This document shows, piece after piece, positions 6,075 through 33,085 of a stretch of DNA of 34,723 nucleotides (position 1 is its first letter; every line of letters begins with the position of its first letter). The DNA lies in NCBI GenBank assembly GCA_029858145.1, contig JAOUFP010000001.1, forward strand, positions 1-34,723, given 5' to 3'. Origin of the DNA: Nitrospirota bacterium (GTDB taxonomy: Bacteria; Nitrospirota; Thermodesulfovibrionia; Thermodesulfovibrionales; UBA6898). Position numbers and translations under genes: made by a program. The notes under the pieces were generated by a model, which worked only from the letters and a program-made list of their open reading frames with translations, had not been told where the DNA came from and did no database searches.

Positions 6075-7807
6075 CAGTAACTCCTGTATCTGTTCGTTAT
6101 CGGAAAGCGCCTGTCCCTGCCGAAGGCCCTGGAAGTGATCTTTATTCCGGGCGGGGCCTGCCTTCTCTTATACTCGCTTCTGTCCACCATCCCTATCACC
6201 TTCCTGGCACATTCCGGATCACACCCCATTTTCAGAATCTCCTCGAAAGAGAACTCGTCTTCAATATACGCCTTAAGGATCGGATCGAGCACCGGATAGG
6301 GCGGGAGCGTGTCGCTGTCCTTCTGGTCATACTTCAGTTCGGCAGTCGGCTCCCTCCATAAAACCCTTTCAGGAATAACGGCTTTGCCCCCGGCTGAATT
6401 CCTCCAATTACTGACAGCATAGACGAGCGTCTTGGGCACATCCTTGATGACCGCGAAACCGCCTGCCATATCGCCGTAGAGCGTCGCATACCCGACGCTC
6501 ATCTCTGATTTGTTTCCGGTCGTCAGCACAAGCCAGCCGAATTTATTCGAGAACGCCATGAGCAGATTTCCCCGTATCCTTGCCTGGAGGTTCTCCTCTG
6601 TTGTATCCTCCTGTCTTCCTTCGAAAGCTCCGGAAAGTATGCGCAGGTACCCGCCCAGGATATCATCGATCGGCAATTCCCTGATGGAAATGCCGAGATT
6701 CTCCGACAGCTCGAACGCATCCTCCCGGCTCACCTGCGACGTGTATTTCGAAGGCATGAAAAGACCAGTCACATTCTCCTTGCCGATCGCATCCGCTGCG
6801 ATTGCCGCGACGAGGGACGAGTCTATGCCGCCGCTGAGGCCGATTACCACCCCGCTGAAGCCGTTTTTCCTCACGTAGTCGGCCGTGCCGAGGACAAGGG
6901 CCCTGTACACCTCTTCTTCACTCTTCAGCGCATGCTCCACAACCGGCTGCCGAAGTTTTTTACGTTCAGGATATCCCGCTGCCGGCATTTTTATCTTCTT
7001 TACGGCACAGGCCGTCCTTGCAGGCAGCTGCATCGAGGCCTGGTTTCTGCTCTTTCTGTATTTCCTGAGGCGCTCCATGTCAAGATCAAGGACCAGCAGG
7101 TCTTCCTCAAACTGTTTCCCTCTCGCGATCAGACTGCCTTCATGGTCGCAGACCATGCTGAAGCCGTCGAAAACCAGCTCGTCCTGCCCTCCGACCGCAT
7201 TCAGATACACAATCACCACGTCATTTTCAGAGGAGCGCTCTTTCAGGATCCTTTCTCTCACCGCCGGTTTTCCCATCTCATAGGGAGAGGCATTGATGTT
7301 AATGATCACCTCAGCACCTGCAAGCGCCTGGACCCGTGCGGGCCCCTCCCGGTGCCAGATATCCTCACAGATATTGATCCCGATTCTGGCGCCGGCTATA
7401 TTGTAAACAGGATACCTTTTCCCGGACTTGAAATAACGGTGCTCGTCGAATACCCCGTAGTTCGGCAGAAAGATCTTATGATAGATATCAGCTATTCTGC
7501 CATCGGCGATTACCGCGGCAGCGTTGTACAAGCTGTTCTTTTCCGCATCGACAAAGCCTGTGATAACGGTAATCCCCGCGGTTCGGGAGGCAATTTTTCC
7601 CAGTTCGGCCAGATTATCGGATATGAATTGGGGTTTGAGGATCAGGTCCTCGGGCGGATATCCCGTCAATGCAAGTTCCGGAAACGCGACGATATCGGCC
7701 TTGTACCTTCCGGCCTTTTTTATATAATGCGAAATCTTTTTCGAATTCCCGGCAAGATCACCAACCGTCGAATTTATCTGTGCAAGCGCCACACGTAACA
7801 CTTTCAT
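6074..7807 (-). CDS. nadE: Glutamine-dependent NAD+ synthetase (CN-hydrolase domain plus NAD synthase domain)
   Basis: 577 aa with an N-terminal nitrilase-like domain (FPELALTGY, ICEDIW) and a C-terminal PP-loop (GLSGGIDSS). Confidence 0.92.
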   Translation of the reverse strand: MKVLRVALAQINSTVGDLAGNSKKISHYIKKAGRYKADIVAFPELALTGYPPEDLILKPQFISDNLAELGKIASRTAGITVITGFVDAEKNSLYNAAAVIADGRIADIYHKIFLPNYGVFDEHRYFKSGKRYPVYNIAGARIGINICEDIWHREGPARVQALAGAEVIININASPYEMGKPAVRERILKERSSENDVVIVYLNAVGGQDELVFDGFSMVCDHEGSLIARGKQFEEDLLVLDLDMERLRKYRKSRNQASMQLPARTACAVKKIKMPAAGYPERKKLRQPVVEHALKSEEEVYRALVLGTADYVRKNGFSGVVIGLSGGIDSSLVAAIAADAIGKENVTGLFMPSKYTSQVSREDAFELSENLGISIRELPIDDILGGYLRILSGAFEGRQEDTTEENLQARIRGNLLMAFSNKFGWLVLTTGNKSEMSVGYATLYGDMAGGFAVIKDVPKTLVYAVSNWRNSAGGKAVIPERVLWREPTAELKYDQKDSDTLPPYPVLDPILKAYIEDEFSFEEILKMGCDPECARKVIGMVDRSEYKRRQAPPGIKITSRAFGRDRRFPITNRYRSY

Positions 7808-16183: not shown

Positions 16184-17248
16184 TCAGGTCTCTGCCCCAG
16201 ACCTGCCGGACTCTTCCTTCCGGCTGGTATGCCCGCCTCTGAGCTGTCCGCAGGCAGCGAGGATGTCCTGCCCCTTGCTCTCACGTATAAGCACGGTCAT
16301 GTTACCGTCTGTCAGAATTTTCTGAAATGCAAGAACGCTGAAACGGGAAGGCCGCTGCAAATCGCTCCCCTCATGCGGGTTAAAGGGGATAAGGTTCACC
16401 TTGCAGCGGATTCCCCTGAGAAGCCTTACCAGTCTTCGCGCGTCTTCAGGAGAATCGTTTACACCGGCGATCAGGACATATTCAAAGGTAATCCTCCTTC
16501 GCGGCTTGAGGGGAAATCTTCGGCAAGCCTCTATCAGTGTCTTTATCGGATATTTCCTGTTGACCGGCATTATCCTGTCGCGCACCGCGTCGGTAGTCGC
16601 GTTGAGCGAGACCGCAAGGTTGACATCCGGGGCCTTCCCCGGCAGTTCGAGTATCTTCGGCGCGAGCCCTGCTGTCGAAAGCGTTATCTTGCGCTTCGAG
16701 ATTCCTATGTGCAACACAATCCTCTTCAGCGCCTCGACCACCTCATCGAAGTTCGCAAGAGGCTCTCCCATGCCCATCAAAACGATATTGGAAATCTTCT
16801 CCGGGGCGATAAGCCTGTTGACGCTCAGGATCTGGTCCACAATCTCCCAGGCCCTGAGGTTCCTGATCAGTCCAGCGGCGCCGGTAAGACAGAAGCGGCA
16901 TCCCATCGCGCAGCCTACCTGTGATGATATGCATAAGGTCAGACGGTCTTTGTCGGGGATCAGTACGCTCTCGACGGTCTGTCCGTCTTCGAGGGAAAAA
17001 AGGAACTTCTCCGTCCCGTCAGAAGACCGCTGTCTTGCGACGACCACGAGGTTGCCGATAGTCGAGATCTCCGCGAGCCTGCTTCTGAGGTCTTTCGAAA
17101 ACTCGGTGATCTCATCCAGAGAGGTAGCGTACCGGGCGTAGATCCAGTTCAAAAGCTGGTCTGTCCGGTAGTTGGGGAGACCCCGCTCTTCCATGAAGCC
17201 GGATAGTTCATCCCTCGACAGGGTCTTCAAATTTATTTTTTTTGACAT
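16184..17248 (-). CDS. rlmN: 23S rRNA/tRNA (adenine-C2)-methyltransferase, radical SAM
   Basis: 354 aa with CAMGCRFCLTG (Cx3Cx2C), MGMGEPL, and a C-terminal AACGQL motif. Confidence 0.93.
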   Translation of the reverse strand: MSKKINLKTLSRDELSGFMEERGLPNYRTDQLLNWIYARYATSLDEITEFSKDLRSRLAEISTIGNLVVVARQRSSDGTEKFLFSLEDGQTVESVLIPDKDRLTLCISSQVGCAMGCRFCLTGAAGLIRNLRAWEIVDQILSVNRLIAPEKISNIVLMGMGEPLANFDEVVEALKRIVLHIGISKRKITLSTAGLAPKILELPGKAPDVNLAVSLNATTDAVRDRIMPVNRKYPIKTLIEACRRFPLKPRRRITFEYVLIAGVNDSPEDARRLVRLLRGIRCKVNLIPFNPHEGSDLQRPSRFSVLAFQKILTDGNMTVLIRESKGQDILAACGQLRGGHTSRKEESGRSGAET

Positions 17249-17984: not shown

Positions 17985-18413
17985 CTAAAGGATCTCTTCA
18001 ATCCTGACATTGAATGTCAGGTCCTTCCCTGCCAACGGATGATTGCAGTCCATGGTGAAGGATTTTTCGGATTTGCCGATGACCGTAATGTTCACCGCCT
18101 GGCCGTCAGCACGGTACATCTGGAGCTGCTGCCCGATCTCCGCGCTGAAGTTCTCCGGTGCGCGCGACCTGTCGAACTCAAAGATCATCTCCTCTTTCCG
18201 CGGTCCATATGCCTCTTCAGCCGGTATTTGTATTGTTTTTGTCTCTCCGACAGCCATCCCGATTACTCCCTGCTCAAATGCCTTCAGTAGTTCGCCTTCC
18301 CCCACCTTGAATTCCATGGACGCGCCATCTTCAGAGGTATCAAAAACTGTCCCGTCCTCAAGTCTGCCTGTATAATGAACCCTTACGGTATCACCTTCTT
18401 TTACCATAGCCAT
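17985..18413 (-). CDS. FKBP-type peptidyl-prolyl cis-trans isomerase (SlyD-like, with an IF insert)
   Basis: 142 aa with VHYTGRLEDGTVFDTS and a SlyD-like insert region. GGAAGGAG lies upstream of the ATG. Confidence 0.88.
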   Translation of the reverse strand: MAMVKEGDTVRVHYTGRLEDGTVFDTSEDGASMEFKVGEGELLKAFEQGVIGMAVGETKTIQIPAEEAYGPRKEEMIFEFDRSRAPENFSAEIGQQLQMYRADGQAVNITVIGKSEKSFTMDCNHPLAGKDLTFNVRIEEIL

Positions 18414-18612
18414 TTTTTTCTCCTTCCCTGATTTTCTTGATCTGCGGCGCTGCTGCGCACGGGCACTCCCGGGCCGGGCCGGGGATGCGATACTTAAAGT
18501 TCGTCAATTTTAACATACTTTCCCCACTATTATCTTCCCGGCCAAATGCTGCTTGGCTAAATATCCTCTCCGTGGCATAATAGTCAATCACCCCGTCTCA
18601 AGGGAAGGGGGA

Positions 18613-19575
18613 ATGCTTAGCGAGCAAGGAAGAATATTATCCCGTATTTCCCGAAAAAATATTGTTGGAGGTCGCAGGTTGAAAACAGCAGGGATTTTTC
18701 CCGGCCAGGGGTCAGAGTTTCCCGGAATGGCGGAACAGCTTAAGGAATACCCCGTTACAGGAGAGATTTTCTCCGTTATCAGCAAGATTGCCGGCAGCGA
18801 TATCTTGAAGCTCGCCCTTGAAGGGCCTGAGGAAGCTTTGAGAGAACCCCTGGCCGCGCAGCTTTCTGTCTTCGGCACGAGCGCATGTTACTGGCACCTT
18901 CTTAGGGAGCGTATCGTTTTTCAAGGTCTTGCAGGCTACAGCCTCGGTTTTTATTCAGCACTCTATGCCGCATCCTCGATCTCCCTGGAAGACTGCGTAA
19001 GGATCATCATAAAGGCAAACAAGGCTATTTTGGACATAACAGAGGGCACAGAGGGACTGATGGCCGCGATTATAGGCCTCAGGATCAGCGAGATCGAAGA
19101 TATATGCAAAGCTGCCGGAAACGTTTTTGTATCCAATATCAGTTCCGCCACCCAGATCGTTGTGTCGGGCATGCGGGATGATGTACGAAAGGCTTGCCAA
19201 AAGGCGCTGGCCGCCGGCGCACTCCACTGCAGAGAACTTCCCATACCTTTCCCGCTTCACACTCCCCTCATGACCGGTATCGGGGAAAGGCTGGAACCCT
19301 TTGTAAAGAGCATCGAGATAAAGCCGCCCGCGATTCCGGTCATAAGCCATATAGACAGCAGAATTTTGAAACTGGAGGATATCGCAGAGGTGATCTGCGG
19401 ACAGCTCACGAGAAAAGTAGCGTGGAAGGATACCGTAATCTTTTTTGCGGGGGCAGGGACAACCAGATTCCTTGAAATCGGCCCGTCCGATGTGTTATCA
19501 AAACTGGTCAGGTGGATAGTGAGGGATGCCGAGTCGGTGCATGCCGGGGAGGTGCTTGATTGCCAGACCGTGTAG
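18613..19575 (+). CDS. ACP S-malonyltransferase-like acyltransferase (FabD family)
   Basis: FPGQGSEFPGM, nucleophile elbow GYSLG, and HTPLM. The start is uncertain. ATG 18613 follows a purine-rich tract. TTG 18679, with GGAGG 7 nt upstream, would give a more typical short N-terminus (MKTAGIFPGQGS). Confidence 0.85.
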   Translation: MLSEQGRILSRISRKNIVGGRRLKTAGIFPGQGSEFPGMAEQLKEYPVTGEIFSVISKIAGSDILKLALEGPEEALREPLAAQLSVFGTSACYWHLLRERIVFQGLAGYSLGFYSALYAASSISLEDCVRIIIKANKAILDITEGTEGLMAAIIGLRISEIEDICKAAGNVFVSNISSATQIVVSGMRDDVRKACQKALAAGALHCRELPIPFPLHTPLMTGIGERLEPFVKSIEIKPPAIPVISHIDSRILKLEDIAEVICGQLTRKVAWKDTVIFFAGAGTTRFLEIGPSDVLSKLVRWIVRDAESVHAGEVLDCQTV

Positions 19576-20294
19576 CTCTCGTTACAGGCGGTACAAAGGG
19601 TATAGGAAAGGCAATAGCCCGCTCTCTTGTCAGTAAAGGCATACGGGTATTCATGAACTACGCCTCTGATGACAAGTCTGCCGAAGAGGCGCTGAACGAA
19701 CTCAATACCGGCGGAAATTACGCCCGGACCATAAAGGCCGATGTCTCCGACCAGCAGCAGGTGAATGAGATGATAGACGGGATAGTCCGGGAGACGGGCA
19801 GGATCGACATCCTCGTAAACAATGCCGGCATAATAAAAGACGGCCTTCTGATGCTTATGCCTGACAGCAACTGGCACCGGGTGATTGAAGTGAACCTCAA
19901 CGGGGTCTATTATACATCCAGGGCGGTCCTGCGGACGATGATAGGCAGCAGATGGGGCAGGATCATCAATATCATTTCACCGAGCGCGCTCCTGGGAAGG
20001 GCCGGACAGACAAACTATTCCGCTGCAAAGGGAGGCGTTTTGAGTTTTACAAAATCGCTGGCAAGAGAATCCGCGCGGTTCGGCATAACCGTCAACGCGG
20101 TCTCACCCGGCGTGATCGCGACCGGACTCACAAGGTACATGGACGAACGCGTCAAAACAGAGTTCCTTTCGATGATTCCTGCGGGAAGATTCGGGACCCC
20201 TGAAGAGGTCGCGCACGCGGTCCTGTTTCTGGCCTCGGACGAGGCCGCTTATATTACCGGTGAATACATATCCGTTGACGGAGGACTCACATAG
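19560..20294 (+). CDS. 3-oxoacyl-ACP reductase-like SDR (FabG family)
   Basis: TGGTKGIGKAIA, NNAG and YSAAK motifs. TTG start preceded by GGAGG. It overlaps the upstream gene by 16 nt. Confidence 0.9.
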   Translation: MPDRVALVTGGTKGIGKAIARSLVSKGIRVFMNYASDDKSAEEALNELNTGGNYARTIKADVSDQQQVNEMIDGIVRETGRIDILVNNAGIIKDGLLMLMPDSNWHRVIEVNLNGVYYTSRAVLRTMIGSRWGRIINIISPSALLGRAGQTNYSAAKGGVLSFTKSLARESARFGITVNAVSPGVIATGLTRYMDERVKTEFLSMIPAGRFGTPEEVAHAVLFLASDEAAYITGEYISVDGGLT

Positions 20295-20554
20295 TGGAAA
20301 AAGAAACGCTCATTGAAGAACTGAAGGCGCTCATCATAAAGAGCCTGAAACTCGAGGATGTCCTGCCTTCGGATATCGATCCCGCCGCGCCGCTTTTCGG
20401 GAGCGGGCTGGGCCTGGACTCGATAGACGCGCTCGAACTGGTCGTTGCGCTCGAGAAAACATATGGCATAAGAATACCCGACGAAGATGTAGGAAAAGAG
20501 GCGTTCGCGTCGCTCAGCGCGCTCGCCGGCTATGTCATAAAAAACAAGAAGTAG
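20294..20554 (+). CDS. Acyl carrier protein
   Basis: 86 aa with the LGLDSIDALEL phosphopantetheine-attachment motif. GTG start, sharing 1 nt with the upstream TAG. Confidence 0.88.
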   Translation: MEKETLIEELKALIIKSLKLEDVLPSDIDPAAPLFGSGLGLDSIDALELVVALEKTYGIRIPDEDVGKEAFASLSALAGYVIKNKK

Positions 20555-20561
20555 CGCTGCC

Positions 20562-20954
20562 ATGAGACCTTTTGAACATCTCCTTCACAGACATCCTTTT
20601 GTTATGCTCGACAGGGCAGAGGTAGTGGAGGAAGGAAGACATGCAAAAGGCATAAAACTTGTTAGTGCCGATGATCCCGCGGTATCGCAGGCAGGCATCT
20701 TCCCTTCCGCGTATGTCGTGGAGGCGATGGCCCAGACTTCGGGCATCGCGAGCGGGAAGGAAACAGGCTCGATGCTGGCAGGGCTGAAAGACATAGAATT
20801 CCGCGGCACTGTGCTGACAGGGGATACGCTGGAGACCGAAAGCATATTCGAAAGGAATTTCGGCGGGCTTTATTTCTTCTCCTGCACGGCATCCGTATCA
20901 GGGAAGAGGGTCGCGGAAGGAGGGGTGATACTCTACTTCGATGAAACAGCATGA
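20562..20954 (+). CDS. FabZ/FabA-like hotdog-fold protein, atypical (canonical GHFP His segment absent)
   Basis: HRHPFVMLDR and IFPSAYVVEAMAQ align with FabZ PHRFPFLLVDR and IFPGVLILEAMAQ. The segment between them is about 4 residues shorter and lacks the His. Confidence 0.75.
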   Translation: MRPFEHLLHRHPFVMLDRAEVVEEGRHAKGIKLVSADDPAVSQAGIFPSAYVVEAMAQTSGIASGKETGSMLAGLKDIEFRGTVLTGDTLETESIFERNFGGLYFFSCTASVSGKRVAEGGVILYFDETA

Positions 20955-21366
20955 AACGCGCCTGACAGTCAGGTTCAACGAAGTCGATTCCTATAACGTC
21001 GTATGGCACGGCCACTACCTCGGCTATTTCGAGGTGGGCAGGCTCGACCTCTGCGGCAGGTTCGGCATGTCGCCCGGCAACCTCGGGGTCCTCGGGCTTT
21101 TCGCGCCGGTGGTCGATATGCGCTGCAGGCTGCGCGCGTCCGCCAGATACGGGGACGAGCTTCTCCTGGAGACATCCGTTGTTCCCACTGAAAAGGCGAT
21201 GCTGATCTTCTCTTTCCGCCTCTACCGGCTGCCTGATATGCACCTCCTCGCCGAAGGTGAGACATCACATGTGCTCCTCAACCTCGAAAACAAGATGCTC
21301 TATGAGGTCCCTCCGGAACTGGCTTCGAGGATAGCAAAGATGACGGCGTATCTTGATGCAGAGTAA
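20941..21366 (+). CDS. 4HBT/YbgC-type acyl-CoA or acyl-ACP thioesterase (hotdog fold)
   Basis: 141 aa with VRFNEVDSYNVVWHGHYLGYFE, typical of the YbgC/4HBT class. It overlaps the upstream gene by 14 nt. Confidence 0.8.
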   Translation: MKQHETRLTVRFNEVDSYNVVWHGHYLGYFEVGRLDLCGRFGMSPGNLGVLGLFAPVVDMRCRLRASARYGDELLLETSVVPTEKAMLIFSFRLYRLPDMHLLAEGETSHVLLNLENKMLYEVPPELASRIAKMTAYLDAE

Positions 21367-23734
21367 ACTGCCCCTCATCCGGTCTTTCACAAAAAAACAT
21401 CCCCGGCTGACCCTGCTTTTGTCGGCATTCGTCCTCATCGCCGCGCTCTCGATCATTTCAGGGGCGAGGTTCGATACTGACGTGACGAGGCTCATCCCCG
21501 TGCACGCGGAGAAGACCGCCCGCTACTTCTCGCTTCTCGAGACCTTCGGGGGCATGGAGAAGACCTACCTTGTTTTTTCTTCGGACAGCATCATGGACCA
21601 CACGGACACGATCGACGCTGTCGGCAAAGAGATAACATCCTCGGGGCTCGTGCGCAGCGCTGAATGGAAAATCCCTGAAGCAACAAAAAAGTTTCTGCGG
21701 GAGGTCTACGCGAAAAAGGCCCCCCTCCTCCTTTCCGGGAAGGAGATGGAGGAGTTCACCAAACGCCTCTCTCCTGAAGGCATGTCGCGTGAGCTGGAAA
21801 AGACACGGCAGCGTCTCACACTGCCCGGCGGGCAGGAGCTGCTCGCGCAGATAGACCCGCTGAATCTGTTCGAGATCTTTTCCGGCCATATGAAATTCTC
21901 CGGCACGCCCTTTGATTTCAGGTCAGGCTATTTTCTCACGCCGGACGGCAGGCATGTCGTCATGATCCTCACGCCATTGAAATCACCCCGGGACATCGCG
22001 TTTTCAGAAAAGCTCGTCGGACGTCTTGAAACGATACTCGGGAAATACGCAAAGGAAGGGCTGAAGGCGGTGATAACCGGAAGCCACGCGATCACCCTCC
22101 ATGAGGCATCCGTAATGAAATCCGAGATTGTCACCAATATCATCATGTCCCTTCTCGGCGTGGCCCTCATATTCCTGATCTTCTTCAGGTCGCTGAAGGG
22201 GCTTTTGTATGTCATGCTCCCTGTCTCCACTGCGATTGTAACCACCATGGGAATGATGCTGGCGGTCACCGGAGCTCTTTCGGAGATCACCGGCGCCTTC
22301 GCCGGGCTCATCACAGGCCTCGGCATAGACCTCGGGATCGTCCTCTACGTGAGATACCTGATCAATTCCAGCGCATACGCGGACAGGGCAGAGTGCATGG
22401 ATAAAAGCATATCTGACGTCTACAGAGGGATCACCACCGGCGTGATCACCACCGCCCTCACCTTTTTGCCGATGGTCTTCTCTTCGTTCAAAGGGATACG
22501 CGACCTCGGCCTGCTGACCGGCCTCGGCATGATCTTCTGCTGGGTCTTTCTCTTCGGCCTCTTTTCCTTGCTGATCAGACCTTCAACCGGGAAATTCGTG
22601 GAGATAAAGGCGATAGGGAAACTTGCCGCCAGGGCATATAACAGGCCCTATTGGGTTATTTCCGTTACAGCGGTCATCACCCTCCTGCTCGTGCCCTTCA
22701 TCCCCCGCGTCCCTGTAACCGGAGACATAACAAAGCTCGGCACGACAGACAATAAGGCACGGCAGGCTCTCGAAGAGCTGAAGGAAAGCTACCTTGAAGA
22801 GCAGGGGGTCTTTATCATAGCGGGCGCGGAAGACCTCGAATCGGTCCTCAGGAGAAGCCTTGAGATAAAAGAGTCTCTTTCAGGAAAAATGACCGGTCTC
22901 TTCGCGGCAGGAGACATCCTCCCTCCTCTCTCCCGGCAGGAAGAAAACCTGCGCGTTCTCTCTTCTCTGGACGCCGGAAAGATCGTCCGGGACTTCAACA
23001 GAAAGGCGGCTGAGGCAGGGTTTGACGTCAGGGCCTTCGGAGCCTTCACCGAAGGGTTGAAAGGCATGCTTGCCAACAGGGCCCCCGTCACCGTCAACGA
23101 CCTCGAACCGGTCAGGGACGCGATAGAAAAAATACTGGTAAAGGACAGTCACGGGTGGAAGACACTCATAACCGGAAACCTCAGGGAAGGCGCGGCGCTC
23201 GGGAATTACCCCGGACTTGAGTATACAGGGCCCGCGTTCATAAAACAGGAACTCCTTCACATCCTGAAAAAAGACGCGATTGTCATCAGCATCATCGGCC
23301 TTCTCCTCGTGAACATCGTCCTTTTTATCGATTTCAGACGCCTCTTTTACGTCATCCTCTGCCAGATCCCCGTGTTCTTCGCCATCATCTGCGTGCTCGG
23401 CATTATGGGCCTTTCGGGCATAAGCCTGAACTTCATGAACGCGATCGTCTTCGTCATGCTCGCGGGAATCGGGACCGACTATACCGTACACCTCCTCCAC
23501 CGCTATCTGACTGACCGGGACATCAGCGCTGCCTTTCTCCAGACAGGAAAGGCGGTCCTCGTCGCAGGACTTACCACGCTCGCGGGGTTCGGCACCATAG
23601 GCTTTTCCTCATATAAGGGGCTTGCGACCATGGGCCAGGTCGCGGCCATCGGGACGATGCTCTGCGTTCTTTTCTCTTTAACTCTCATCCCTTCCCTGTT
23701 AAAATTACATGAGAACATTTCCGGCAAAAGATGA
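21356..23734 (+). CDS. MMPL/RND-superfamily exporter
   Basis: About 790 aa, with two blocks of about 6 TM helices, each preceded by a large soluble loop. It resembles the predicted exporters found in aryl-polyene and hopanoid type lipid clusters. ATG at 21356 (the ORF track begins at TTG 21353). It overlaps the thioesterase gene end. Confidence 0.85.
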   Translation: MQSKLPLIRSFTKKHPRLTLLLSAFVLIAALSIISGARFDTDVTRLIPVHAEKTARYFSLLETFGGMEKTYLVFSSDSIMDHTDTIDAVGKEITSSGLVRSAEWKIPEATKKFLREVYAKKAPLLLSGKEMEEFTKRLSPEGMSRELEKTRQRLTLPGGQELLAQIDPLNLFEIFSGHMKFSGTPFDFRSGYFLTPDGRHVVMILTPLKSPRDIAFSEKLVGRLETILGKYAKEGLKAVITGSHAITLHEASVMKSEIVTNIIMSLLGVALIFLIFFRSLKGLLYVMLPVSTAIVTTMGMMLAVTGALSEITGAFAGLITGLGIDLGIVLYVRYLINSSAYADRAECMDKSISDVYRGITTGVITTALTFLPMVFSSFKGIRDLGLLTGLGMIFCWVFLFGLFSLLIRPSTGKFVEIKAIGKLAARAYNRPYWVISVTAVITLLLVPFIPRVPVTGDITKLGTTDNKARQALEELKESYLEEQGVFIIAGAEDLESVLRRSLEIKESLSGKMTGLFAAGDILPPLSRQEENLRVLSSLDAGKIVRDFNRKAAEAGFDVRAFGAFTEGLKGMLANRAPVTVNDLEPVRDAIEKILVKDSHGWKTLITGNLREGAALGNYPGLEYTGPAFIKQELLHILKKDAIVISIIGLLLVNIVLFIDFRRLFYVILCQIPVFFAIICVLGIMGLSGISLNFMNAIVFVMLAGIGTDYTVHLLHRYLTDRDISAAFLQTGKAVLVAGLTTLAGFGTIGFSSYKGLATMGQVAAIGTMLCVLFSLTLIPSLLKLHENISGKR

Positions 23735-24435
23735 GGACCATGCCTTTGACCGAGCGTAACATCTGCTGCGTAATCCCGGCATATAACGAGGCAAGAAGAA
23801 TTTCTTCCGTGATCAGAGGCGCCAGGGAGCATATCAATGACGTCATCGTCGTCGACGACGGTTCGGGGGACGCTACCGCGGAACTGGCTCAGAAGGCGGG
23901 CGCATATGTCCTCAGGCATGATCTGAACCGCGGGAAAGGCATGGCGCTCAGGACCGGCTTCTCCCATGTAATGAAAAGAGGCTACCGGGCGGTCTTGACA
24001 CTCGACGCGGACGGACAGCACGATCCTTCGGAGATACGGAAGTTCCTCTCCGCGTTTCAGGAAAATTCAGGCGATGTCATCATCGGGTCGCGGCTCTGGG
24101 ACAAGGCTGCGATACCCCGTTACCGCTACATCCCGAACCAGATAGGGATATTCTGCATATCAAAGGCAGCCGGCTGCAGGATAGAAGACACTCAGTCAGG
24201 GTTCCGCCTCTACCGGAAAGAGGTGCTGGACGCGTTAAACCTTGTGACCACAGGCTTTGAAACCGAGACGGAGATACTCATTAAAGCAGGGAAGAAAGGC
24301 TTTAAGATCCATCACCTCCCGGTATCCGCAATTTATCACAGCGACTACACAACCAATTTCAGGCCTGTCAGGGACTTTTACCGCATAAGCATTCTGGTCT
24401 TGAAGCTGGCCTTTTCAGGAGAAGCAAAAGGGTGA
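23731..24435 (+). CDS. Family 2 glycosyltransferase (Dpm1/GtrB-like)
   Basis: CCVIPAYNE, VVVDDGSGD and LDADGQHD motifs. ATGA overlap with the exporter gene. Confidence 0.88.
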   Translation: MRTMPLTERNICCVIPAYNEARRISSVIRGAREHINDVIVVDDGSGDATAELAQKAGAYVLRHDLNRGKGMALRTGFSHVMKRGYRAVLTLDADGQHDPSEIRKFLSAFQENSGDVIIGSRLWDKAAIPRYRYIPNQIGIFCISKAAGCRIEDTQSGFRLYRKEVLDALNLVTTGFETETEILIKAGKKGFKIHHLPVSAIYHSDYTTNFRPVRDFYRISILVLKLAFSGEAKG

Positions 24436-24441
24436 GATCCG

Positions 24442-24681
24442 ATGAAAGACAAATCGCCAAACCCGGGAATCTCTTTTTTTCCATCCGGGCAAGGGCGGCT
24501 TCCCGACGAACCATATAATACAGTGCTCTTTTCTGATTGCAGGGTTGAAAATATCTACTGGGACAGAAACAAATTATTTATTGAATATTCTAAATTACAA
24601 AATAAACACCCGGATAAAATCAGGGCAGAATTAAAAATGAATCCTCCTGCCCGGGCGACGTTGATTGAGATTAATCCCTGA
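24442..24681 (+). CDS. Hypothetical 79-aa protein (last gene of the operon, AT-rich)
   Basis: ATG 6 nt after the GT2 stop. I recognise no motif. The central part is visibly more AT-rich than the neighbouring genes. Confidence 0.45.
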   Translation: MKDKSPNPGISFFPSGQGRLPDEPYNTVLFSDCRVENIYWDRNKLFIEYSKLQNKHPDKIRAELKMNPPARATLIEINP

Positions 24682-24725: not shown

Positions 24726-27410
24726 CTACTTGTCCAGCACCTCCCGTATCTTTCTTAAAATCTCCTCTGTCGTGGCAGTTTTCGATATGAAATTTAACTT
24801 CTCCTCAATGATCCCCTGGTTGTCTATTATGTCTTTCGTATATCCGCTCATAAAGAGCACCGCAGTCTCCCGACTCTCTTTTTTAATCTCCTCATACACT
24901 TCCCTGCCGTTTTTTTTGGGCATCCGCACATCGAGAAAGACAAGATCAATCTGGTCTTTCTTTTCCATAAACACCTTCACCGCGGACTCGCCGTCCCCAG
25001 CCTCCAGCACCGTATACCCCGACAGTCGCAGCACCTCGCTCATCGTCTCCCTCGCATCATGGTCATCTTCCGCCAGGAGGATCGTTTCTTTCCCTTCGGT
25101 TGCCGAAGTGACATCCCGGCTCTCTTGCTGTACTGCCTTTGCTTCCACTGCTGGAAGGTATAGCTTGAAGGTGGTCCCCTTTCCCGGCGCCGTCTCCACA
25201 TCAATAAAACCGTTGTGCTGTTTTACTATGCCATAGGTGACCGCAAGCCCCAACCCTGAGCCATGCCCCAACTCCTTTGTGGTAAAGAACGGCTCGTATA
25301 TCTTTTCCTTTATCTCCTCTTCCATCCCCACTCCTGTGTCAGAGACGCTCAACAGGACATATCTGCCGGAAACACCGTAGCCGTGCCTCTTCCTGAATTC
25401 CTCATCCATGTCTATTATTTCGGTACGAATGGTCAGTCTCCCTCCGTCCGGCATAGCATCCTGCGCATTGGTCGCGAGGTTCAGGAGAACCTGTTCTATC
25501 TGGTTGATGTCTGCCATGACTGCCGGTTTTTTGTCAGTGAGAACTATAATCATCTCTATGTCTTCGCCGATAATAGGGGATAACAGTTTCGTCCCCATAT
25601 GAATGATCCCGTTGAAATCTACGGGCCGCAGGGTGATTGTCTGTTTTCTGCTGAACGCCAGAAGATCGTGGCAAAGGCTGCTGGCTTTGTTTATGGACGA
25701 ACTGATCTGTTCAGCATATTTGATCACCGGGTTGTCCGCCTGAAGTTTTTTCAGTATGAGGTGAATGGATCCCTTTATCGTAGCGAGAATGTTGTTGAAT
25801 TCATGGGCGATCCCCCCGGCAAGGAGACCGACCGCCTCCATTTTCTGGGACTGCTGCAGCTGTTCATTCAAAACCGCCAGTTCCCGTGTGCGCTGTTCGA
25901 CCAGTTCCTCAAGATGGGCACGGTATTTTCCGAGCTCCTCTTCAGCAAGTCTGCGCTCTTTGATCTCGTCGTTGAGGCTCTCGATTGCCCTTGAAAGATC
26001 TGTTGTCCGTTCCCTTACTCTCTTTTCCAATTCTTCATAGAGCATGGCATTTTTCAGGGCGATGGAAGCCTGGTCAGCTATGGTAATCAGGAGAGAAATA
26101 TCTTCGCCCGAGAAGGCGTCCGTGGATAATTTTTCTCCGGGTATCAGTAAGAATGCAAGTTTCTCTTCTACAAATATTGGCACGAGTGCTTCCCCTTCGA
26201 AGGGCTGCAAGATCTCTGCGATGGCATGTGCCTGGTCCTCTGAAGCGGATAATTCCTCCTTAATAAATATACCCTTGCGCTTCAAATAATTTGCTGACAA
26301 AGTGCATGCTCCGGGTGGAACGGCGCCAGCCCTGACATTCGGGGCCTTGTCCTGCGCAATCCTGGAGCAGGTTATTTCAAATGATCCGTCTGCGGCGGAC
26401 AAGAGGTATGCGCTTTTCAATCTCAGAGAGTCGAAAATAGTGTCGACGATGAGTCTGCAGATGCGCTGCAGTTCGATTGTTGTCGTGAGTTTATGGCTTA
26501 TTTCCTTGACTGTGGCATAGTGGTCATACGTGGTCCTGTGGAATACCTTGTCCACCAATAACTGTATCCTGTTTTTGAGCGGCGCAAAAAGGAGGGCGAT
26601 GATAAGCGCGGAGATGACCGTGATGGTGAAAGAGGTTATACCGGTTACCTGAGACAGGTAGGTTGTCAGGATGAACACGAGAACCACAAAGAGGCCAGTG
26701 AGGAGACTGACAGAAAGTGAATAGACCACGCTTTTCCTGACCACAAGGTTGAACTCCATGATTCGATGCCGAAGGATGGCGTAGCTGAGGATAACGGCAT
26801 ACACCACTATCCCGAAATTCCCGAACGGATACAGCAAATCTATCCGGAACATCGGCAGGAATGTAGTTGTAGCGCCGACAAAGCCCATGAGAAACCCGAA
26901 CATGATATAGGAGGCCTGGGTCCGTCTGTAGCCTTTTGCTTTTCTGTAGAACTGAATGAGCAAATGGTAACTGAACAGGACAAAGAACAGATAAAGGAGG
27001 ATTGCCAGCGTGTACGCAGGCGTCACTTCATTATAAAACAAACCAAAAACATATCTGGTTTTGTTAAAGATGAGATTTGTGCCGAAGCCCAGGAAAGCAG
27101 AGACTGTTGCCTGTACGTATCCAAAGGAAAGTAATTTCCTGTTTTTGCTTCCAGTGAATTCGCCCACCAGATGATAAAACGAAGGGCCGACAAAGAAGCC
27201 GCCTAAGTTTGCACACTGCCACCCCAGTATCGCCGTGTTGCCGGTCCGGGCGATTCCTGCCAGGAAACAACCAAAACCCCAGAGGGCAACCGCAATATTG
27301 AAAAAGAGCAGGCGGCGGTGTAAACGGGTTCTGCCAAAGAGAAATGACACTGCAGACAGAAGCGCGCAGGTGATTCCAACGCCAAGACCTGCCGCGGCAA
27401 AGAGATTCAT
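24726..27410 (-). CDS. Hybrid sensor histidine kinase/response regulator (7TM N-domain, GAF-like, HisKA, HATPase, REC)
   Basis: 894 aa with about seven N-terminal TM helices, a coiled coil, H-box [27 protein letters not shown] and GSGLGL boxes, and REC ([18 protein letters not shown]). Confidence 0.9.
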
Positions 27411-28745: not shown

Positions 28746-29903
28746 CTATTTGTTGCGCGCCGCCTCTTTGATGATCGCCTGTCCGATAACGTTTCTCTGT
28801 ATCTGGTTCGTGCCTTCGTATATCTGGAGTATCTTTGCGTCTCTCATCATCTTTTCGAGAGGATACTCTTTCATGTATCCGGAGCCCCCTGTGACCTGAA
28901 GCGCGTCAGTGGTCACTTTCATCGCGGTATCCGTTGCAAAGAGCTTGGCCATCGCGGATTCCTTCGAGACATCCTTTGCCCCGCTGTCTATGAACCGCGC
29001 AACAGAGTAAACGAGGGAGCGGGAGGCCTCAATAGAGGTAGCCATATCGGCAAGCATATGCTGTATCGCCTGGAAGCTTATAATTGGATGTCCGAACTGG
29101 ACCCTCTTCCGGGCAAATTTTACCGCCTCTTCGTAGGCACCCTGTGCAACTCCAACACCCTGCGCTCCAACACCTGTTCTCGAGCTGTCGAGGGTCTTCA
29201 TCGCGACGAGGAAACCGGCACCATCCTTTCCGATAAGGTTTTCCTTCGGGATTCTGCAGTTATCGAAGATAAGCTCGGTTGTCGCGGAAGCCCGTATCCC
29301 CATTTTGTTTTCTTTTTTCCCGAATGTAAAGCCAGGGGTTCCTTTTTCAACAACGAATGCGGAAGCGCCACGGGGGCCTTTTGAACGGTCGGTGATCGCT
29401 ATTATGGTATAAATCTCAGCTTCGCCGCCATTTGTTATCCACTGCTTTGTGCCGTTTATGATGTATTCGTTCCCATCGAGTTTTGCGGTAGTCTGGGTCC
29501 CTCCGGCGTCACTTCCCGCGTTGGCTTCCGTCAGCCCGAAGGCCACGAGTTTTTCCCCTGCCGCGATATCAGGAAGATATTTCTTCTTCTGGGCATCCGT
29601 GCCAAAAAGCAGTATGGGGTATGTGCCCAGCGCATTTGCAGCGTACGTTGTTGAAACCCCGAGACAGGCACGCGACAACTCCTCGACAGCGATGCAGAGC
29701 TCGAGGCTGGCCTTTCCAAGACCGCCGTATTCTTCAGGAATGAAGAGTCCAAAGAGATCTGACTGAGCGAGAACTTTCATGATGTCCCAGGGAAATTCGC
29801 CTGTTTCATCCAATTCAGCCCTTACAGGCACGATTTTCTCTTCAGCGACCTGTCGTGCCAGGTCTCTGATCATGATCTGTTCTTCACTCAAAAAGTAGTC
29901 CAT
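28746..29903 (-). CDS. Acyl-CoA dehydrogenase (short/medium-chain, butyryl-CoA dehydrogenase-like)
   Basis: 385 aa with GLTEANAGSDAGG, WITNGG, and YEGTNQIQR near the C-terminus. GGTGGAGG lies upstream of the ATG. Confidence 0.92.
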   Translation of the reverse strand: MDYFLSEEQIMIRDLARQVAEEKIVPVRAELDETGEFPWDIMKVLAQSDLFGLFIPEEYGGLGKASLELCIAVEELSRACLGVSTTYAANALGTYPILLFGTDAQKKKYLPDIAAGEKLVAFGLTEANAGSDAGGTQTTAKLDGNEYIINGTKQWITNGGEAEIYTIIAITDRSKGPRGASAFVVEKGTPGFTFGKKENKMGIRASATTELIFDNCRIPKENLIGKDGAGFLVAMKTLDSSRTGVGAQGVGVAQGAYEEAVKFARKRVQFGHPIISFQAIQHMLADMATSIEASRSLVYSVARFIDSGAKDVSKESAMAKLFATDTAMKVTTDALQVTGGSGYMKEYPLEKMMRDAKILQIYEGTNQIQRNVIGQAIIKEAARNK

Positions 29904-30002
29904 TCTATTGTACCTCCACCTTTAAAAAACTCAATCTTATCTGGAATTTATAATGACAACCATTGTAACAAAAAAGAGATAAAATATGAAAGAAGATATA
30001 TT

Positions 30003-31181
30003 TCACAGAAGACGGCGCATAGCACGGAAATATTCCTTTCTGCATTTTTGCTCGACGGTTCTCATGACATCGAACGGTGTGCTGAAGTTATCGCTGCCGG
30101 CGATAAAAATGCCGTGCCCGTAGACGATAACCGCGTTCCTGCCGGCCATGGCCTCCGGCACTGTGTGAGCAAGGCCTGTGGGGCCGGTCCCGATCTCGCC
30201 GGAGACAACAGGGATGCCGTCGATAAAACGCGGTATGCGGCAGGTTTTATAGCAGGTAGAAAGATCGCATCCCTCCCGCCTGCAGGACATGGATTGTATG
30301 ACCGTGAATTTGGGGTGGCCGTGAATGATCGCTTTTTTCCCGGTGGCCCTGTAGATGCCTATATGCGCCGAGAGTTCCGAGGACGCGGTTATCCCGGCAG
30401 AAGAAGACCCGTCGAGAGGCACGGCGTCAATGCAGGTCTCGAGCTCATCCAGGGAACTCCCGGTCTGGCTGATATAGATCTTATTCCCATGGACGTATGA
30501 GATATTTCCGAAGTACGAGTCCACGAGCCTGTTGTCAACAAGCGCCGTGCCGGTCTTTACGATAGAGGCGTAAACATCGTCTTCCTGTTCCGGAACGCGG
30601 GGGGCAACGGGATTTTCTGATATGCCATCCGGGGGTAATTTGCTGACGATATCGTGGAACGACCTGCGTGTCCTTTCATCTGCCGGCAGGTTTTTTTTTC
30701 TGCAGTCCTCCAGGGAGAACATGATATCCGTAAAGAATTTTACAAAGGCCGAGAAGCAGGCAGAACTGAATGATACAAAGGCCTGCTCAGGGCTTACCGT
30801 GCCATGTGCGACAATGCCTTTTCCCCTGATTATCGCCGCCTTTCTGCGCGACAATGCCTTGAAAATTTCAGAAGCCTTCAATTCTTCTATAACCGGAATG
30901 TCATGAAGGAATGTTCTGGTTTCACAATCCGAAGGGGTCAGTTTTTCTTCTCCCTGTTCCGTAAGAGAACAGATGATACTCCGGTATGGCTCAGCCGGTT
31001 CCGCATAGAGGAGGCTGTTGATGTTCATCATTTCAAAGACCCTTGCGAGTTCGGTACTGCCGGCTTCTGAAGGTCTGTTCGATTCCAGTTCTGCGTCCAG
31101 CCCGAGAAAGAAGATGCTGTCTTCCCCGGCCAGCCCCTGGCGGACCATTTTTGTTATATATTTATCGAGTAATCTTTTCAT
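30003..31181 (-). CDS. Class II aldolase/adducin-domain protein with a duplicated, partly degenerate architecture
   Basis: The C-terminal half has GNISYV, ISQTGSS, IIHGHPKF and VIVYGHGIFIAGSD. The N-terminal half has a related AIIRGKGIVAHGTVSPEQAF block without the His residues. Confidence 0.75.
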   Translation of the reverse strand: MKRLLDKYITKMVRQGLAGEDSIFFLGLDAELESNRPSEAGSTELARVFEMMNINSLLYAEPAEPYRSIICSLTEQGEEKLTPSDCETRTFLHDIPVIEELKASEIFKALSRRKAAIIRGKGIVAHGTVSPEQAFVSFSSACFSAFVKFFTDIMFSLEDCRKKNLPADERTRRSFHDIVSKLPPDGISENPVAPRVPEQEDDVYASIVKTGTALVDNRLVDSYFGNISYVHGNKIYISQTGSSLDELETCIDAVPLDGSSSAGITASSELSAHIGIYRATGKKAIIHGHPKFTVIQSMSCRREGCDLSTCYKTCRIPRFIDGIPVVSGEIGTGPTGLAHTVPEAMAGRNAVIVYGHGIFIAGSDNFSTPFDVMRTVEQKCRKEYFRAMRRLL

Positions 31182-31273
31182 GCCTCAGAACGATGGAATA
31201 TGTTGTGCAGGACAGGCCTGAAAATCATGGACAGGACAAGTTGCGCCATACCGCATCTTCCGTCTTTCTGTAT

Positions 31274-33034
31274 TCACAGATATTCCCCAAGGCCGAGACT
31301 GACTAAAAGGTCGCTGTCCGGCACACCGTTTTGGCCGTATCCCCTCGCCCGGTAATAATTGTTTCGGGCCGCAAGAAATTCCTCCCTGTCCAGAGGTTTT
31401 ACCTGTATGTTGGGAGATGATGAGCCCTCCTCGGCAAAGAATCTCTCCGGCAGGTCGTCATCGTTTATATCGAAGCCATTTAAAGAATTAAGATGCCGTT
31501 CGAGGACGTAGATCCTTTCCCCGGTCTTAAGAAGGGACTGCGCGTCATGATCCATGCCGGTGACCGCTGAAACGGCCTTCGCGTATTCTTCCAGAGATGC
31601 CGCGAAAAAAACAAACTTGCACGCGGTGATTGAATCGACGACCGCGTTCATATCCTCCGCTATCTTTATGATCCGCGCCTTTCCCTCAAATGAGAAACGG
31701 TCGGTCGCGACGGGTTTTCTCAATATCTCATGGCTTATCGGATAGGCGCGCAGGTGACATCCTCCCCTGTTCGAAGTTGCATAGGCGAGCGCCATGCCGT
31801 ACGCTCCACGCGGATCATAAGCCGGCAGTTCGAGCCCCTTGACGGACATGCTCAGCTGCTGCCTGCCCTGAAGCTGTGCGTACCGGTACGAACCTTCCGC
31901 GAGAGCTTCTCCCGGACCTTTTTCGCGCATCGCGATCTTTTTGATAAGAGCGAGCATTTCATCGGGACCGGGTACGGCGCCTTCCAGTTCAGCATAGCAT
32001 GATAGCGTCGAGGCGGTACTTATGGTATCCATCCCGAAATCATTACAGAGCCTGTTTGCCTCTATTATTGATTCGACGTCATTATTGCCGTTCAAGGCCC
32101 CGAAGTGGGAAACCGTCTCATATTCCGGGATGATCTCTCCCCTTTCCCCGACTTTCTTACAGAGGACGGGACAGCCCGCGCATCCGGTTTTTTTGGTTTT
32201 ATAGCGGTTCTTCAGTCTGTAACCCGAATATGACGAGGCAAAGTCATAGAACGTTGCCCTGAAGTTATCAGTAGGTTCCATCCGCCGTGAGTGGATGAGA
32301 TCGACGAACGCGGAAGTGCCGAATTCAGAGAGCCCCAGCTCTCCAAAGACCGCCTGTGAAGCCCTCAGCAATCTCATAATTTCTTCACGGGCCTTCTGAA
32401 GTTCTTCCCGGTCATATACCGGTACGGCGCCGTCTCCCTTTACTTTTATCGCCTTTATTCTCTTTGCTCCCATGACAGCGCCGAGACCGCCCCTGCCCGC
32501 GAGATAATGGCCGTCAAAGACAATCGACGCGAATTTAACTCCCTTTTCACCGGCGATTCCGATAACGGCATCCGATCCTTTTCCCCCGATCAGCTTTCTT
32601 ACCTCTTCGACGTTTTTCCCGGTGAGTCTTTCTGCGTCCTCGACAGTGGCCCTGCCGTTTTCTATAGTGAGCGTAACCCCGCTGTCTGCTATGCCGACAA
32701 TTTCTATGCAGTCAAAGCCTGCCTTTTTCAGCGCTGTCCCGAATTTCCCTCCAACAGAGCAGTCCATTACGGTGCCGGTGAGGGGGGAGCGGGATATGAC
32801 GGACGAGCGTCCGGAAGTTGGGGCGGCTGTCCCCACCAGAGGCCCTGACGAAAAGATGAGCGGCATATCAGGGGAGTCGAATTCATTAAGTATCCGTTTG
32901 CCGAGCAGGGCAACGCCGAAGCCTCTTCCCCCCATGAATTTTTTATTCAGACCGGTAGGTGTACTGATGATCTCGGTTTTTTTTAGCCTGAGGTCAACTC
33001 TGAGGGTTTTAGAAGTGTAGCCGTACATTTGCAT
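31274..33034 (-). CDS. Aldehyde:ferredoxin oxidoreductase family (tungstopterin) enzyme
   Basis: YGYTSKTLRVDL N-terminus, GGRGFG, GCAGCPVLCKK cluster cysteines, and GMDTIS. The start is ambiguous among TTG 33061, ATG 33034 and ATG 33028. Confidence 0.9.
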   Translation of the reverse strand: MQMYGYTSKTLRVDLRLKKTEIISTPTGLNKKFMGGRGFGVALLGKRILNEFDSPDMPLIFSSGPLVGTAAPTSGRSSVISRSPLTGTVMDCSVGGKFGTALKKAGFDCIEIVGIADSGVTLTIENGRATVEDAERLTGKNVEEVRKLIGGKGSDAVIGIAGEKGVKFASIVFDGHYLAGRGGLGAVMGAKRIKAIKVKGDGAVPVYDREELQKAREEIMRLLRASQAVFGELGLSEFGTSAFVDLIHSRRMEPTDNFRATFYDFASSYSGYRLKNRYKTKKTGCAGCPVLCKKVGERGEIIPEYETVSHFGALNGNNDVESIIEANRLCNDFGMDTISTASTLSCYAELEGAVPGPDEMLALIKKIAMREKGPGEALAEGSYRYAQLQGRQQLSMSVKGLELPAYDPRGAYGMALAYATSNRGGCHLRAYPISHEILRKPVATDRFSFEGKARIIKIAEDMNAVVDSITACKFVFFAASLEEYAKAVSAVTGMDHDAQSLLKTGERIYVLERHLNSLNGFDINDDDLPERFFAEEGSSSPNIQVKPLDREEFLAARNNYYRARGYGQNGVPDSDLLVSLGLGEYL

Positions 33035-33085
33035 TTTACCCGTAAAGGAAAATTCTTCCAATTCATTCCGTCTGCATGAAATCTT

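Follow-up and report, generated by a model that had tools for sequence, protein, structure and literature searches.

How can genes that would load, process and export an acyl chain on an acyl carrier protein (ACP) work together when none of them encodes an enzyme that extends the chain? The question is raised by the first 34,723 nucleotides of contig JAOUFP010000001.1 from a Nitrospirota bacterium (hereafter, the window), where eight open reading frames (ORFs) on the forward strand follow one another with short overlaps or gaps. The reading toward which we lean, with modest confidence, is that seven of them provide the carrier, processing and export functions at the core of a modular pathway for an outer-membrane lipid. 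This pathway would be of the aryl polyene (APE)/ladderane type, a Nitrospirota system resembling type II fatty acid synthases (FAS) and polyketide synthases (PKS). The same locus is also found on a 22.9-kb ENA metagenome contig, ERZ27296335. The ORF list gives the eight genes and their seven junctions exactly as they had been described in the original prediction, which was made from the sequence of the window.

18553, 18613 or 18679 to 19575, forward strand: acyltransferase (AT)
19560 to 20294, forward strand: ketoreductase (KR), 16-nt overlap with the AT gene
20294 to 20554, forward strand: ACP, 1-nt overlap with the KR gene
20562 to 20954, forward strand: dehydratase (DH)-like hotdog protein, 7-nt gap after the ACP gene
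20941 to 21366, forward strand: thioesterase (TE), 14-nt overlap with the DH-like gene
21353 or 21356 to 23734, forward strand: MMPL exporter, 14- or 11-nt overlap with the TE gene
23731 to 24435, forward strand: family 2 glycosyltransferase (GT2), 4-nt ATGA junction with the MMPL gene
24442 to 24681, forward strand: 79-amino acid ORF, 6-nt gap after the GT2 gene

Gene content of the operon

Profile scans with Pfam and NCBIfam covered the eight operon proteins, and window scans covered 20 further large flanking ORFs. The families identified were Acyl_transf_1, FabG, PP-binding, FabA/FabZ-like, 4HBT_2, MMPL and Glycos_transf_2, in agreement with all earlier assignments. Among the large ORFs of the window the scans detected no ketosynthase (KS), adenylating enzyme, LolA or LolB-like protein, and none of them matched PF00109 or PF02801. 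Searches by tblastn with KS and chain-length factor (CLF) queries had no match in the window either. A hidden condensing enzyme was rejected on the basis of these profile and tblastn searches, all of which were empty, and the claims that the operon has no condensing enzyme and no LolA-like carrier hold, and the same is true of the rest of the window.

The acyltransferase

The AT is a protein of 298 amino acids if translation starts at TTG 18679, and of 320 if it starts at ATG 18613. It matches PF00698 with 54.9 bits and the fabD model TIGR00128 with 178.7 bits, the latter under the cutoff of 260.9, and the structures closest to it are those of FabD (137 bits to 6smd). The equivalents of FabD Ser92 and His201 are kept. 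Relatives from a homolog search were aligned with the canonical FabDs recovered in the same search, and attention was centered on Arg117 of E. coli FabD, the residue that binds the malonyl carboxylate. While every canonical FabD in the alignment has Arg at this position, the window AT has Ala, and every operon-linked family member aligned has Ala, Val or Ile, with Ser92 and His201 retained. The cousin ATs from Geobacterales likewise have no Arg117.

Loss of the arginine that pairs with malonyl, with the Ser-His pair kept, is an established mark of ATs that take monocarboxylic acyl groups, such as the loading ATs of PKSs. The R606A mutant of the animal FAS malonyl/acetyl transferase, reportedly described in mutagenesis work by Rangan and Smith, has the same combination. 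The window AT is like the loading-type ATs and this mutant in both respects, but those are domains of type I megasynthases, whereas the window AT is free-standing and closest to FabD. Since Arg117 is lost in the whole family, the AT is probably a starter or acyl loader rather than a malonyl transferase. The label "FabD-like" was thus right about the family and not about the kind of transferase. In the same way, the original prediction was correct that the operon encodes no adenylating enzyme, but its statement that there is no loading enzyme probably fails, because the AT itself is the likely loader.

The GxSxG motif of the AT (about 18940-18955) reads GYSLG, in contrast to GHSLG in most close orthologs. 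GYSLG-type motifs are the norm in a more distant AT subfamily (P0298-P0306).

The hotdog protein

The DH-like protein, of 130 amino acids, has a 29-bit match to the FabA Pfam family and a weak precomputed ApeP-like match, and scores 62 bits against TIGR01750, for which the cutoff is 155. Its AlphaFold2 model (pLDDT 88) superposes on E. coli FabZ (6n3p) with a TM-score of about 0.8. In all orthologs the GHFPG segment with the catalytic His is deleted, while the Glu motif, (I/V)E(A/S)MAQ, is kept. The description of this protein as an atypical FabZ-like hotdog was therefore accurate with respect to the family, and incomplete in that the catalytic His is missing. The family is small: an exhaustive profile search yielded four representatives at E<=1e-30 among 1.84 billion, and the nine best matches are all His-less.

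In FabZ, an active site combines a His from one subunit with a Glu from its partner subunit. The DH-like protein presumably needs a partner, since the Glu half alone cannot form a complete FabZ site. In APE clusters, ApeI and ApeP pair to form a dehydratase that has just one active site (PMC8041823), and by analogy the DH-like protein resembles one member of such a heterodimer, although the window operon has one FabZ-fold gene only. The top 50 Foldseek matches listed, examined to place the protein with ApeI or ApeP, are FabZ entries (canonical FabZs, the anammox amxFabZ 8ayd and a YcsD-FabZ model); 6qsr is not among these 50, and by sequence it is found at E 0.36 only. The catalytic His48 is kept in amxFabZ (PMC10139942), unlike in the window protein. 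One of the closest structural matches to the DH-like protein is 9a6k, an integrative model of a YcsD-FabZ hetero-complex.

The other core proteins

The KR (244 amino acids) is a 3-oxoacyl-ACP reductase of the FabG type that scores 299.3 bits against TIGR01830 (cutoff 297.75); its match to FlxB, of 273 bits, is under the cutoff. The TTG start at 19560 is needed for an intact Rossmann motif. KR orthologs are 61-89% identical to it.

The ACP (86 amino acids) exceeds the cutoff of NF006617 (84 bits versus 70) but not that of the AcpP model TIGR00517 (41 bits versus 70.45). The best PDB match is 9LS6, which is ApeE of A. baumannii (E 5.6e-18), the starter-carrying ACP of the APE cluster of this bacterium (PMC12624758). 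It has a glycine-rich motif, FGSGLGLDS. By these matches, it is a dedicated ACP of the ApeE type.

The TE (141 amino acids) is a hotdog protein of the YbgC/4HBT class (4HBT_2, 52 bits) with PDB matches to 1z54 and to the 4-hydroxybenzoyl-CoA thioesterase 6fdg. The gene is accessory, as roughly half of the orthologous operons do without it (L002, L007, L010, L012, L013, L017, L020, L055 and L056; related loci are designated here by L numbers).

The MMPL protein, with 792 or 793 amino acids depending on the start, belongs to the MMPL/RND transporters (HAE3, HpnN-like; PF03176, 104 bits). Its best NCBIfam match is HpnN (TIGR03480, 177 bits, under the cutoff), and the HpnN hopanoid transporters 5khn and 6wu0 are its sole PDB relatives. 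There are 44 relatives at 42% identity or more, and those with a source name come from Nitrospirota or Thermodesulfovibrionales metagenome-assembled genomes. Separately, archaeal contigs of Methanophagales/ANME-1 (L043-L050) encode MMPL homologs that match the C-terminal two thirds of the protein at 30-36% identity and have no bacterial operon around them; gene transfer between domains, or a lipid-transporter family common to both, could account for them.

The GT2 (234 amino acids) is soluble and matches PF00535 with 87.5 bits. The matches to PpgS (126 bits) and AglJ (122 bits) are both under the cutoff, and the PDB matches are dolichol-phosphate mannose synthase (5mlz) and ArnC, whose catalytic domains it resembles. 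These relationships point to a putative polyprenyl-phosphate-sugar synthase type of enzyme (Dpm1/ArnC/PpgS-like) that may have an ApeJ-like role. Its orthologs are 49-90% identical and the gene is missing in L003 only.

Conservation of a seven-gene core

Related loci were collected by an MMPL-alignment scan of one genome per GTDB species, look-ups of single homologs, and ORF and BLAST analysis. The gene order AT-KR-ACP-DH-(TE)-MMPL-GT2 is found in at least 15 independent Nitrospirota/Thermodesulfovibrionales loci. The arrangement is therefore not a chance juxtaposition, a possibility that the original prediction had raised.

Conservation does not extend to the eighth ORF. The 79-amino acid ORF has no Pfam or NCBIfam match, no homolog was found in 50 or more related loci, and DNA homology to L057, the MMPL protein of which is 87% identical, stops at the GT2 stop codon. 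It was rejected as an operon component because it lacks a homolog in any locus and the L057 homology ends where it does; it is an orphan or spurious ORF outside the conserved set. For the same reasons, the conserved unit consists of seven genes, and of the proposed eight-gene set seven are conserved in order. In place of this ORF the relatives have unrelated ORFs of 136-161 amino acids after GT2. Pfam and NCBIfam scans of these ORFs, and of the neighbors of 255-267 and 383 amino acids found in relatives, returned no informative match.

The seven genes are under purifying selection, with ratios of nonsynonymous to synonymous substitution (dN/dS) of 0.02-0.48 versus three relatives. The most constrained gene is that of the ACP (0.02-0.03), and the values were 0.07-0.15 for the KR and 0.15-0.16 for the AT. 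These data bear on the idea that the locus is a housekeeping fabD-fabG-acpP operon, or a decaying and non-functional remnant of a larger cluster. The order fabD-fabG-acp does resemble that of a canonical fab operon, the KR lies just over the FabG equivalog cutoff, the partner modules described below are missing in the window, and an IS110 element is located 3.7 kb upstream of the operon. However, all seven ORFs are intact as well as constrained, and the closest relatives, L056 and L057, retain the same operon. Compared with the housekeeping type II FAS, the AT is not a FabD equivalog (178 bits versus a cutoff of 261), the ACP is not an AcpP equivalog (41 versus 70) and the hotdog protein does not have the complete His54/Glu68 site; Arg117 and the FabZ catalytic His are both absent. 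A housekeeping fab operon was rejected since the equivalog cutoffs are failed and catalytic and specificity residues are missing, and we regard the housekeeping and the decaying operon together as very improbable and essentially excluded.

Partner modules in related loci

As a system, the operon of the window is incomplete when set beside its relatives. Most relatives have a second module within about 10 kb of the operon, which comprises a B12-binding radical SAM enzyme (B12-rSAM), a protein of about 255-267 amino acids, a SPASM-type radical SAM enzyme (SPASM-rSAM), a second B12-rSAM and an acyltransferase of the LpxL family (PF03279). The full module, LpxL-like gene included, is present in L005, L007/L055, L009, L011, L015, L019 and L029, and L053 has it minus the LpxL-like gene, at which point the locus ends. 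The SPASM-rSAM is 71-78% identical between loci. Additional radical SAM genes adjoin the operon itself: in L020, L053 and L054, a DUF2062 gene and two B12-rSAM genes are found directly before the AT gene. One B12-rSAM is encoded in L006/L052, which in the GTDB-species scan had the highest MMPL identity of all species-representative genomes, and is a member of TIGR04072, "rSAM_ladder_B12" (lipid biosynthesis B12-binding/radical SAM protein; 374 bits versus a cutoff of 360). The B12-rSAM beside the AT gene in L005 and L020 is 51% identical to it, and those of L053 and L054 are assigned to the TIGR04072 type by position only.

The locus L052 also encodes, upstream of a gene for an FKBP-type peptidyl-prolyl isomerase (PPIase), LolA, a KS, a CLF-like protein, three B12-rSAMs, the TIGR04072 enzyme among them, and a DUF2062 protein. 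The KS keeps the Cys-His-His triad, which the CLF-like protein does not have. More distant loci from Geobacterales, with MMPL proteins about 25% identical, have in one row the genes for a B12-rSAM, an Arg-less AT, a TE, a B12-rSAM, a KR, a KS, a CLF, LolA, a hydrolase, LolB and an MMPL protein. LolA was found in L052 and the Geobacterales loci only. Rattray et al., searching for ladderane genes, noted clusters of FASII and radical SAM genes in anammox bacteria, Desulfotalea, Geobacter and Pelobacter (PMC2649909), and the Geobacterales loci are clusters of this kind. Being "ketosynthase-less" is thus a property of the operon and not of the system in every genome.

Two other kinds of neighbors give indications about substrate and destination. 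Genes for the alpha and beta subunits of indolepyruvate:ferredoxin oxidoreductase (IOR) lie between MMPL and GT2 in L006 (12354-14493) and L052 (15030-17169), and L015 has an IOR-alpha homolog at the same position (5816-7459). The product of IOR is arylacetyl-CoA, and for this reason IOR genes inside the operon fit a CoA-thioester starter for the Arg-less AT; their presence hints at arylacetyl-CoA or another 2-oxoacid-derived starter. Two Thermodesulfovibrionales-like loci, L053 (1-6631) and L054 (385-6887), have the cluster directly after ompH-lpxD-fabZ-lpxA...lpxI, and L054 has bamA as well. This adjacency suggests that the product is tied to lipid A or outer-membrane biogenesis. In L029, a gene for a branched-chain aminotransferase is located just upstream of the hotdog gene.

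The distribution of KS genes opens the possibility of a self-contained pathway without dedicated chain extension. In such a pathway the AT would move a pre-made chain (3-oxoacyl or 3-hydroxyacyl, from CoA or AcpP) to the ACP, the KR and the hotdog protein would adjust the beta-position, and release or transfer, glycosylation and export would follow. No KS is found within about 10 kb of the operon in the window or in about 13 of the 14 Nitrospirota relatives with long flanks; an AT without malonyl specificity cannot provide the units for extension on its own ACP; and the Thermodesulfovibrionales-like loci adjoin lpxD-fabZ-lpxA, the products of which consume 3-hydroxyacyl-ACP. On the other hand, L052 and all Geobacterales cousins have an in-line KS/CLF together with homologous AT, KR, TE and MMPL genes, and a KR and DH pair is the signature of post-condensation processing. 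Housekeeping FabD and AcpP could provide malonyl-ACP for extension, much as APE systems borrow FabD (PMC12624758). We consider this pathway the main rival, possible but clearly a minority reading. If a dedicated condensing enzyme is truly lacking in the KS-less genomes, its mechanism would be new.

The radical SAM genes raise a further possibility, namely that in KS-less genomes three or four B12-rSAMs and the SPASM enzyme build or couple the skeleton, by iterative methylation or C-C coupling, with the operon providing only carrier, reduction and export functions. The genes that accompany the operon most constantly are those for B12-rSAM and SPASM enzymes rather than KS genes, the SPASM enzyme is highly similar across loci as given above, and one B12-rSAM is an equivalog-level member of a "lipid biosynthesis" family. 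Nevertheless, such assembly has no biochemical precedent in the family, the window has no such radical SAM gene, B12-rSAMs usually methylate rather than extend chains, and clusters that do contain a KS carry the same radical SAM enzymes. Radical SAM-driven assembly is therefore quite unlikely. A fuller version, also unlikely, is that in most Nitrospirota carrying the operon the system is truly KS-less: the AT would load a pre-made or amino acid-derived acyl group, the radical SAM enzymes would build the skeleton, the LpxL-like enzyme would anchor it to a lipid A-like acceptor and the MMPL protein would export it. If true, it would be a new route to an outer-membrane lipid in strict anaerobes.

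Comparison with known systems

The resemblance to APE clusters that had been pointed out for this operon is borne out by the match of the ACP to ApeE (9LS6), the weak ApeP-like match of the hotdog protein, and the fit of TE, MMPL and GT2 to the roles of ApeK, ApeM and ApeJ (PMC8253772). When compared with ApeA-R of E. coli, Xenorhabdus and Acinetobacter, the operon shares an ApeE-type ACP, a FabG-like KR in the role of ApeQ, a 4HBT thioesterase in that of ApeK, a small soluble GT2 in that of ApeJ and an MMPL exporter in that of ApeM, and neither has an enoyl reductase. Its FabZ-like subunit, which lacks half of an active site, is compatible with one member of an ApeI/ApeP pair. Roles in release, anchoring and export have been proposed for ApeK, ApeJ, ApeD and ApeM (PMC8253772). 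The differences are also numerous. The window operon does not have the ketosynthases ApeO, ApeC and ApeR (KS/CLF and initiation KS), a methyltransferase, the Lol-like ApeL and ApeN, or a second hotdog subunit. In place of the AMP-binding loader ApeH, which the window does not have, there is the Arg-less, FabD-derived AT, while APE clusters have no AT, as they borrow FabD. The B12-rSAM and SPASM genes of the relatives are unknown in APE clusters. Functionally, the operon corresponds to the half of an APE cluster that does not carry out condensation, yet it is not an APE cluster.

The second comparison was made with "ladderane-type" FASII plus radical SAM clusters (Kuenenia kuste3603-3608 and kuste3335-3352, Desulfotalea and Geobacter; NCBIfam TIGR04072). 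A dedicated ACP and a variant FabZ are common to both, and so are, in the relatives, the TIGR04072 B12-rSAM beside the AT gene (L006, L020 and L005) and a KS/CLF-like pair (L052). The hosts are anaerobes in both cases, and outside anammox bacteria there is no known product. Unlike these clusters, the window has neither a TIGR04072 radical SAM enzyme nor a FabF paralog, and none of the loci showed a phytoene-dehydrogenase-like gene; the Arg-less AT, MMPL, GT2 and LpxL-like module in this order are found only in the Nitrospirota version. Even though their radical SAM and FabF paralogs are absent from the window, the operon sits more naturally with the TIGR04072-associated clusters than with APE clusters.

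Another parallel is functional. In the very-long-chain fatty acid/lipid A system of Rhizobiales (AcpXL/LpxXL), a dedicated ACP and a FabZ-like enzyme make a special acyl chain that is installed by an LpxL-family acyltransferase (PF03279). By analogy, the relatives of the window operon that carry an LpxL-like acyltransferase, and the two that adjoin lpxD-fabZ-lpxA-lpxI, may represent a comparable arrangement. The AcpXL cluster differs in having two FabF ketosynthases of its own and no radical SAM, MMPL or GT2 gene, and the LpxL-like gene is not in the window.

Proposed pathway

The reading that we favor, a modular pathway of which the seven genes are the core, would proceed as follows. The Arg-less AT would transfer to the ApeE-type ACP a non-carboxylated acyl starter supplied by a CoA thioester or another ACP, and so take the place of the adenylating loader ApeH. 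The FabG-type KR would reduce ACP-bound beta-keto intermediates. These would then be handled by the FabZ-fold subunit with the Glu half-site, presumably paired with a His-bearing hotdog partner as in ApeI/ApeP; because FabZ paralogs can pair with FabZ, housekeeping FabZ is a candidate for this partner. Condensation, if any, would be carried out by a KS/CLF pair encoded elsewhere, as it is beside the operon in one relative, or by a housekeeping KS. In most relatives the B12-rSAM and SPASM-rSAM enzymes would modify the chain and the LpxL-like enzyme would move it to a glycolipid anchor, possibly related to lipid A. The GT2 may supply or attach a sugar, the optional 4HBT thioesterase may release the chain or act in proofreading, and the HpnN/ApeM-like MMPL protein would export the lipid toward the outer membrane. 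The partner modules of the window operon would be located elsewhere in the genome or have been lost.

Several observations weigh against this pathway. KS, CLF, LolA, B12-rSAM, SPASM and LpxL-like (PF03279) genes are all absent from the window, and a KS is nearby in only about one of the 14 Nitrospirota relatives with about 10 kb of flank on each side. No operon encodes a His-bearing hotdog partner. The substrate proposed for the AT follows from one residue class only, and the AT of the window has GYSLG where most of its close orthologs have GHSLG, a His-to-Tyr change that is also present in P0229. The link of TIGR04072-type clusters to ladderanes is itself unproven (PMC10139942), and the cluster family has no member of known product.

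A search of the literature found no characterization of this Nitrospirota cluster, only general surveys of biosynthetic gene clusters and the papers on APE and ladderanes. New features are the FabD derivative, a free-standing protein that has systematically lost Arg117, the FabZ subunit present without its His and without a partner, the split architecture, in which the carrier, processing and export genes are apart from the condensing and radical SAM genes, and the link to lipid A genes, with the cluster inside a lipid A operon in some genomes. Few bacterial lipid gene clusters are as widespread as those of the APE and "ladderane" types. How their products are anchored and exported is poorly understood, and so is the whole chemistry of the versions that contain radical SAM enzymes. 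The AT substrate, the partner of the His-less hotdog protein and the acceptor of the LpxL-like enzyme are three testable handles that could reveal the product and its membrane anchor, and cultivated Thermodesulfovibrio species may give experimental access that anammox bacteria do not.

Start site, promoter and neighboring genes

The operon is flanked by a divergent FKBP gene and a convergent histidine kinase gene, as originally predicted.

17985 to 18413, reverse strand: FKBP-type PPIase (PF00254), divergent from the operon
18553 to 18581, forward strand: sigma-70-like promoter candidate, TTGGCT-17-CATAAT with an upstream TG, from a consensus scan only
24726 to 27410, reverse strand: hybrid histidine kinase (7TM-GAF-HisKA-HATPase-receiver), convergent with the operon

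The promoter candidate is within the 199-nt intergenic region between the divergent FKBP and AT genes, 5' of the AT starts at 18613 and 18679. Its position makes a start at TTG 18553 unlikely. Initiation most likely occurs at TTG 18679 rather than at ATG 18613, the start chosen in the original prediction, because GGAGG is found at 18667-18671 (7 nt upstream), the N-termini of the orthologs match and the promoter-like site is located as described. A regulatory RNA in the 5' region was considered and rejected, as Rfam at gathering thresholds had no match in the whole window.

The FKBP gene is part of a block with response regulator (RR) and RlmN genes that is divergent upstream of the operon in most relatives of the FKBP type, including L002, L003, L010, L012-L014, L017 and L056; L009 and L011 retain only FKBP and RlmN from it. 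FKBP is thus a conserved neighbor, not a demonstrated component. On the other side, the window has 3' of GT2 only the orphan ORF and then the histidine kinase gene, and the position of the latter next to the operon is not kept in relatives. A second large hybrid histidine kinase (GAF-PAS-HisKA-HATPase-receiver) is encoded at 8217-10931 on the reverse strand.

The IS110 element upstream of the operon consists of an IS110-family transposase gene (DEDD_Tnp_IS110 and Transposase_20; 13882-14925, reverse strand) between a GGDEF gene (12304-13620) and an RluD-like gene (15301-16284). L056, with an MMPL protein 78% identical, has the same GGDEF-RluD-RlmN-RR-FKBP synteny without the element, which indicates that the insertion is recent in the lineage of the window.

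Farther downstream, at 28746-33061 on the reverse strand, there are genes for an acyl-CoA dehydrogenase, a protein of 392 amino acids with a C-terminal class II aldolase domain and a tungsten-type aldehyde:ferredoxin oxidoreductase. As far as tested, this run of genes is unrelated to the operon. Together with a DUF362/4Fe-4S gene (3274-4392), it indicates an anaerobic lifestyle.

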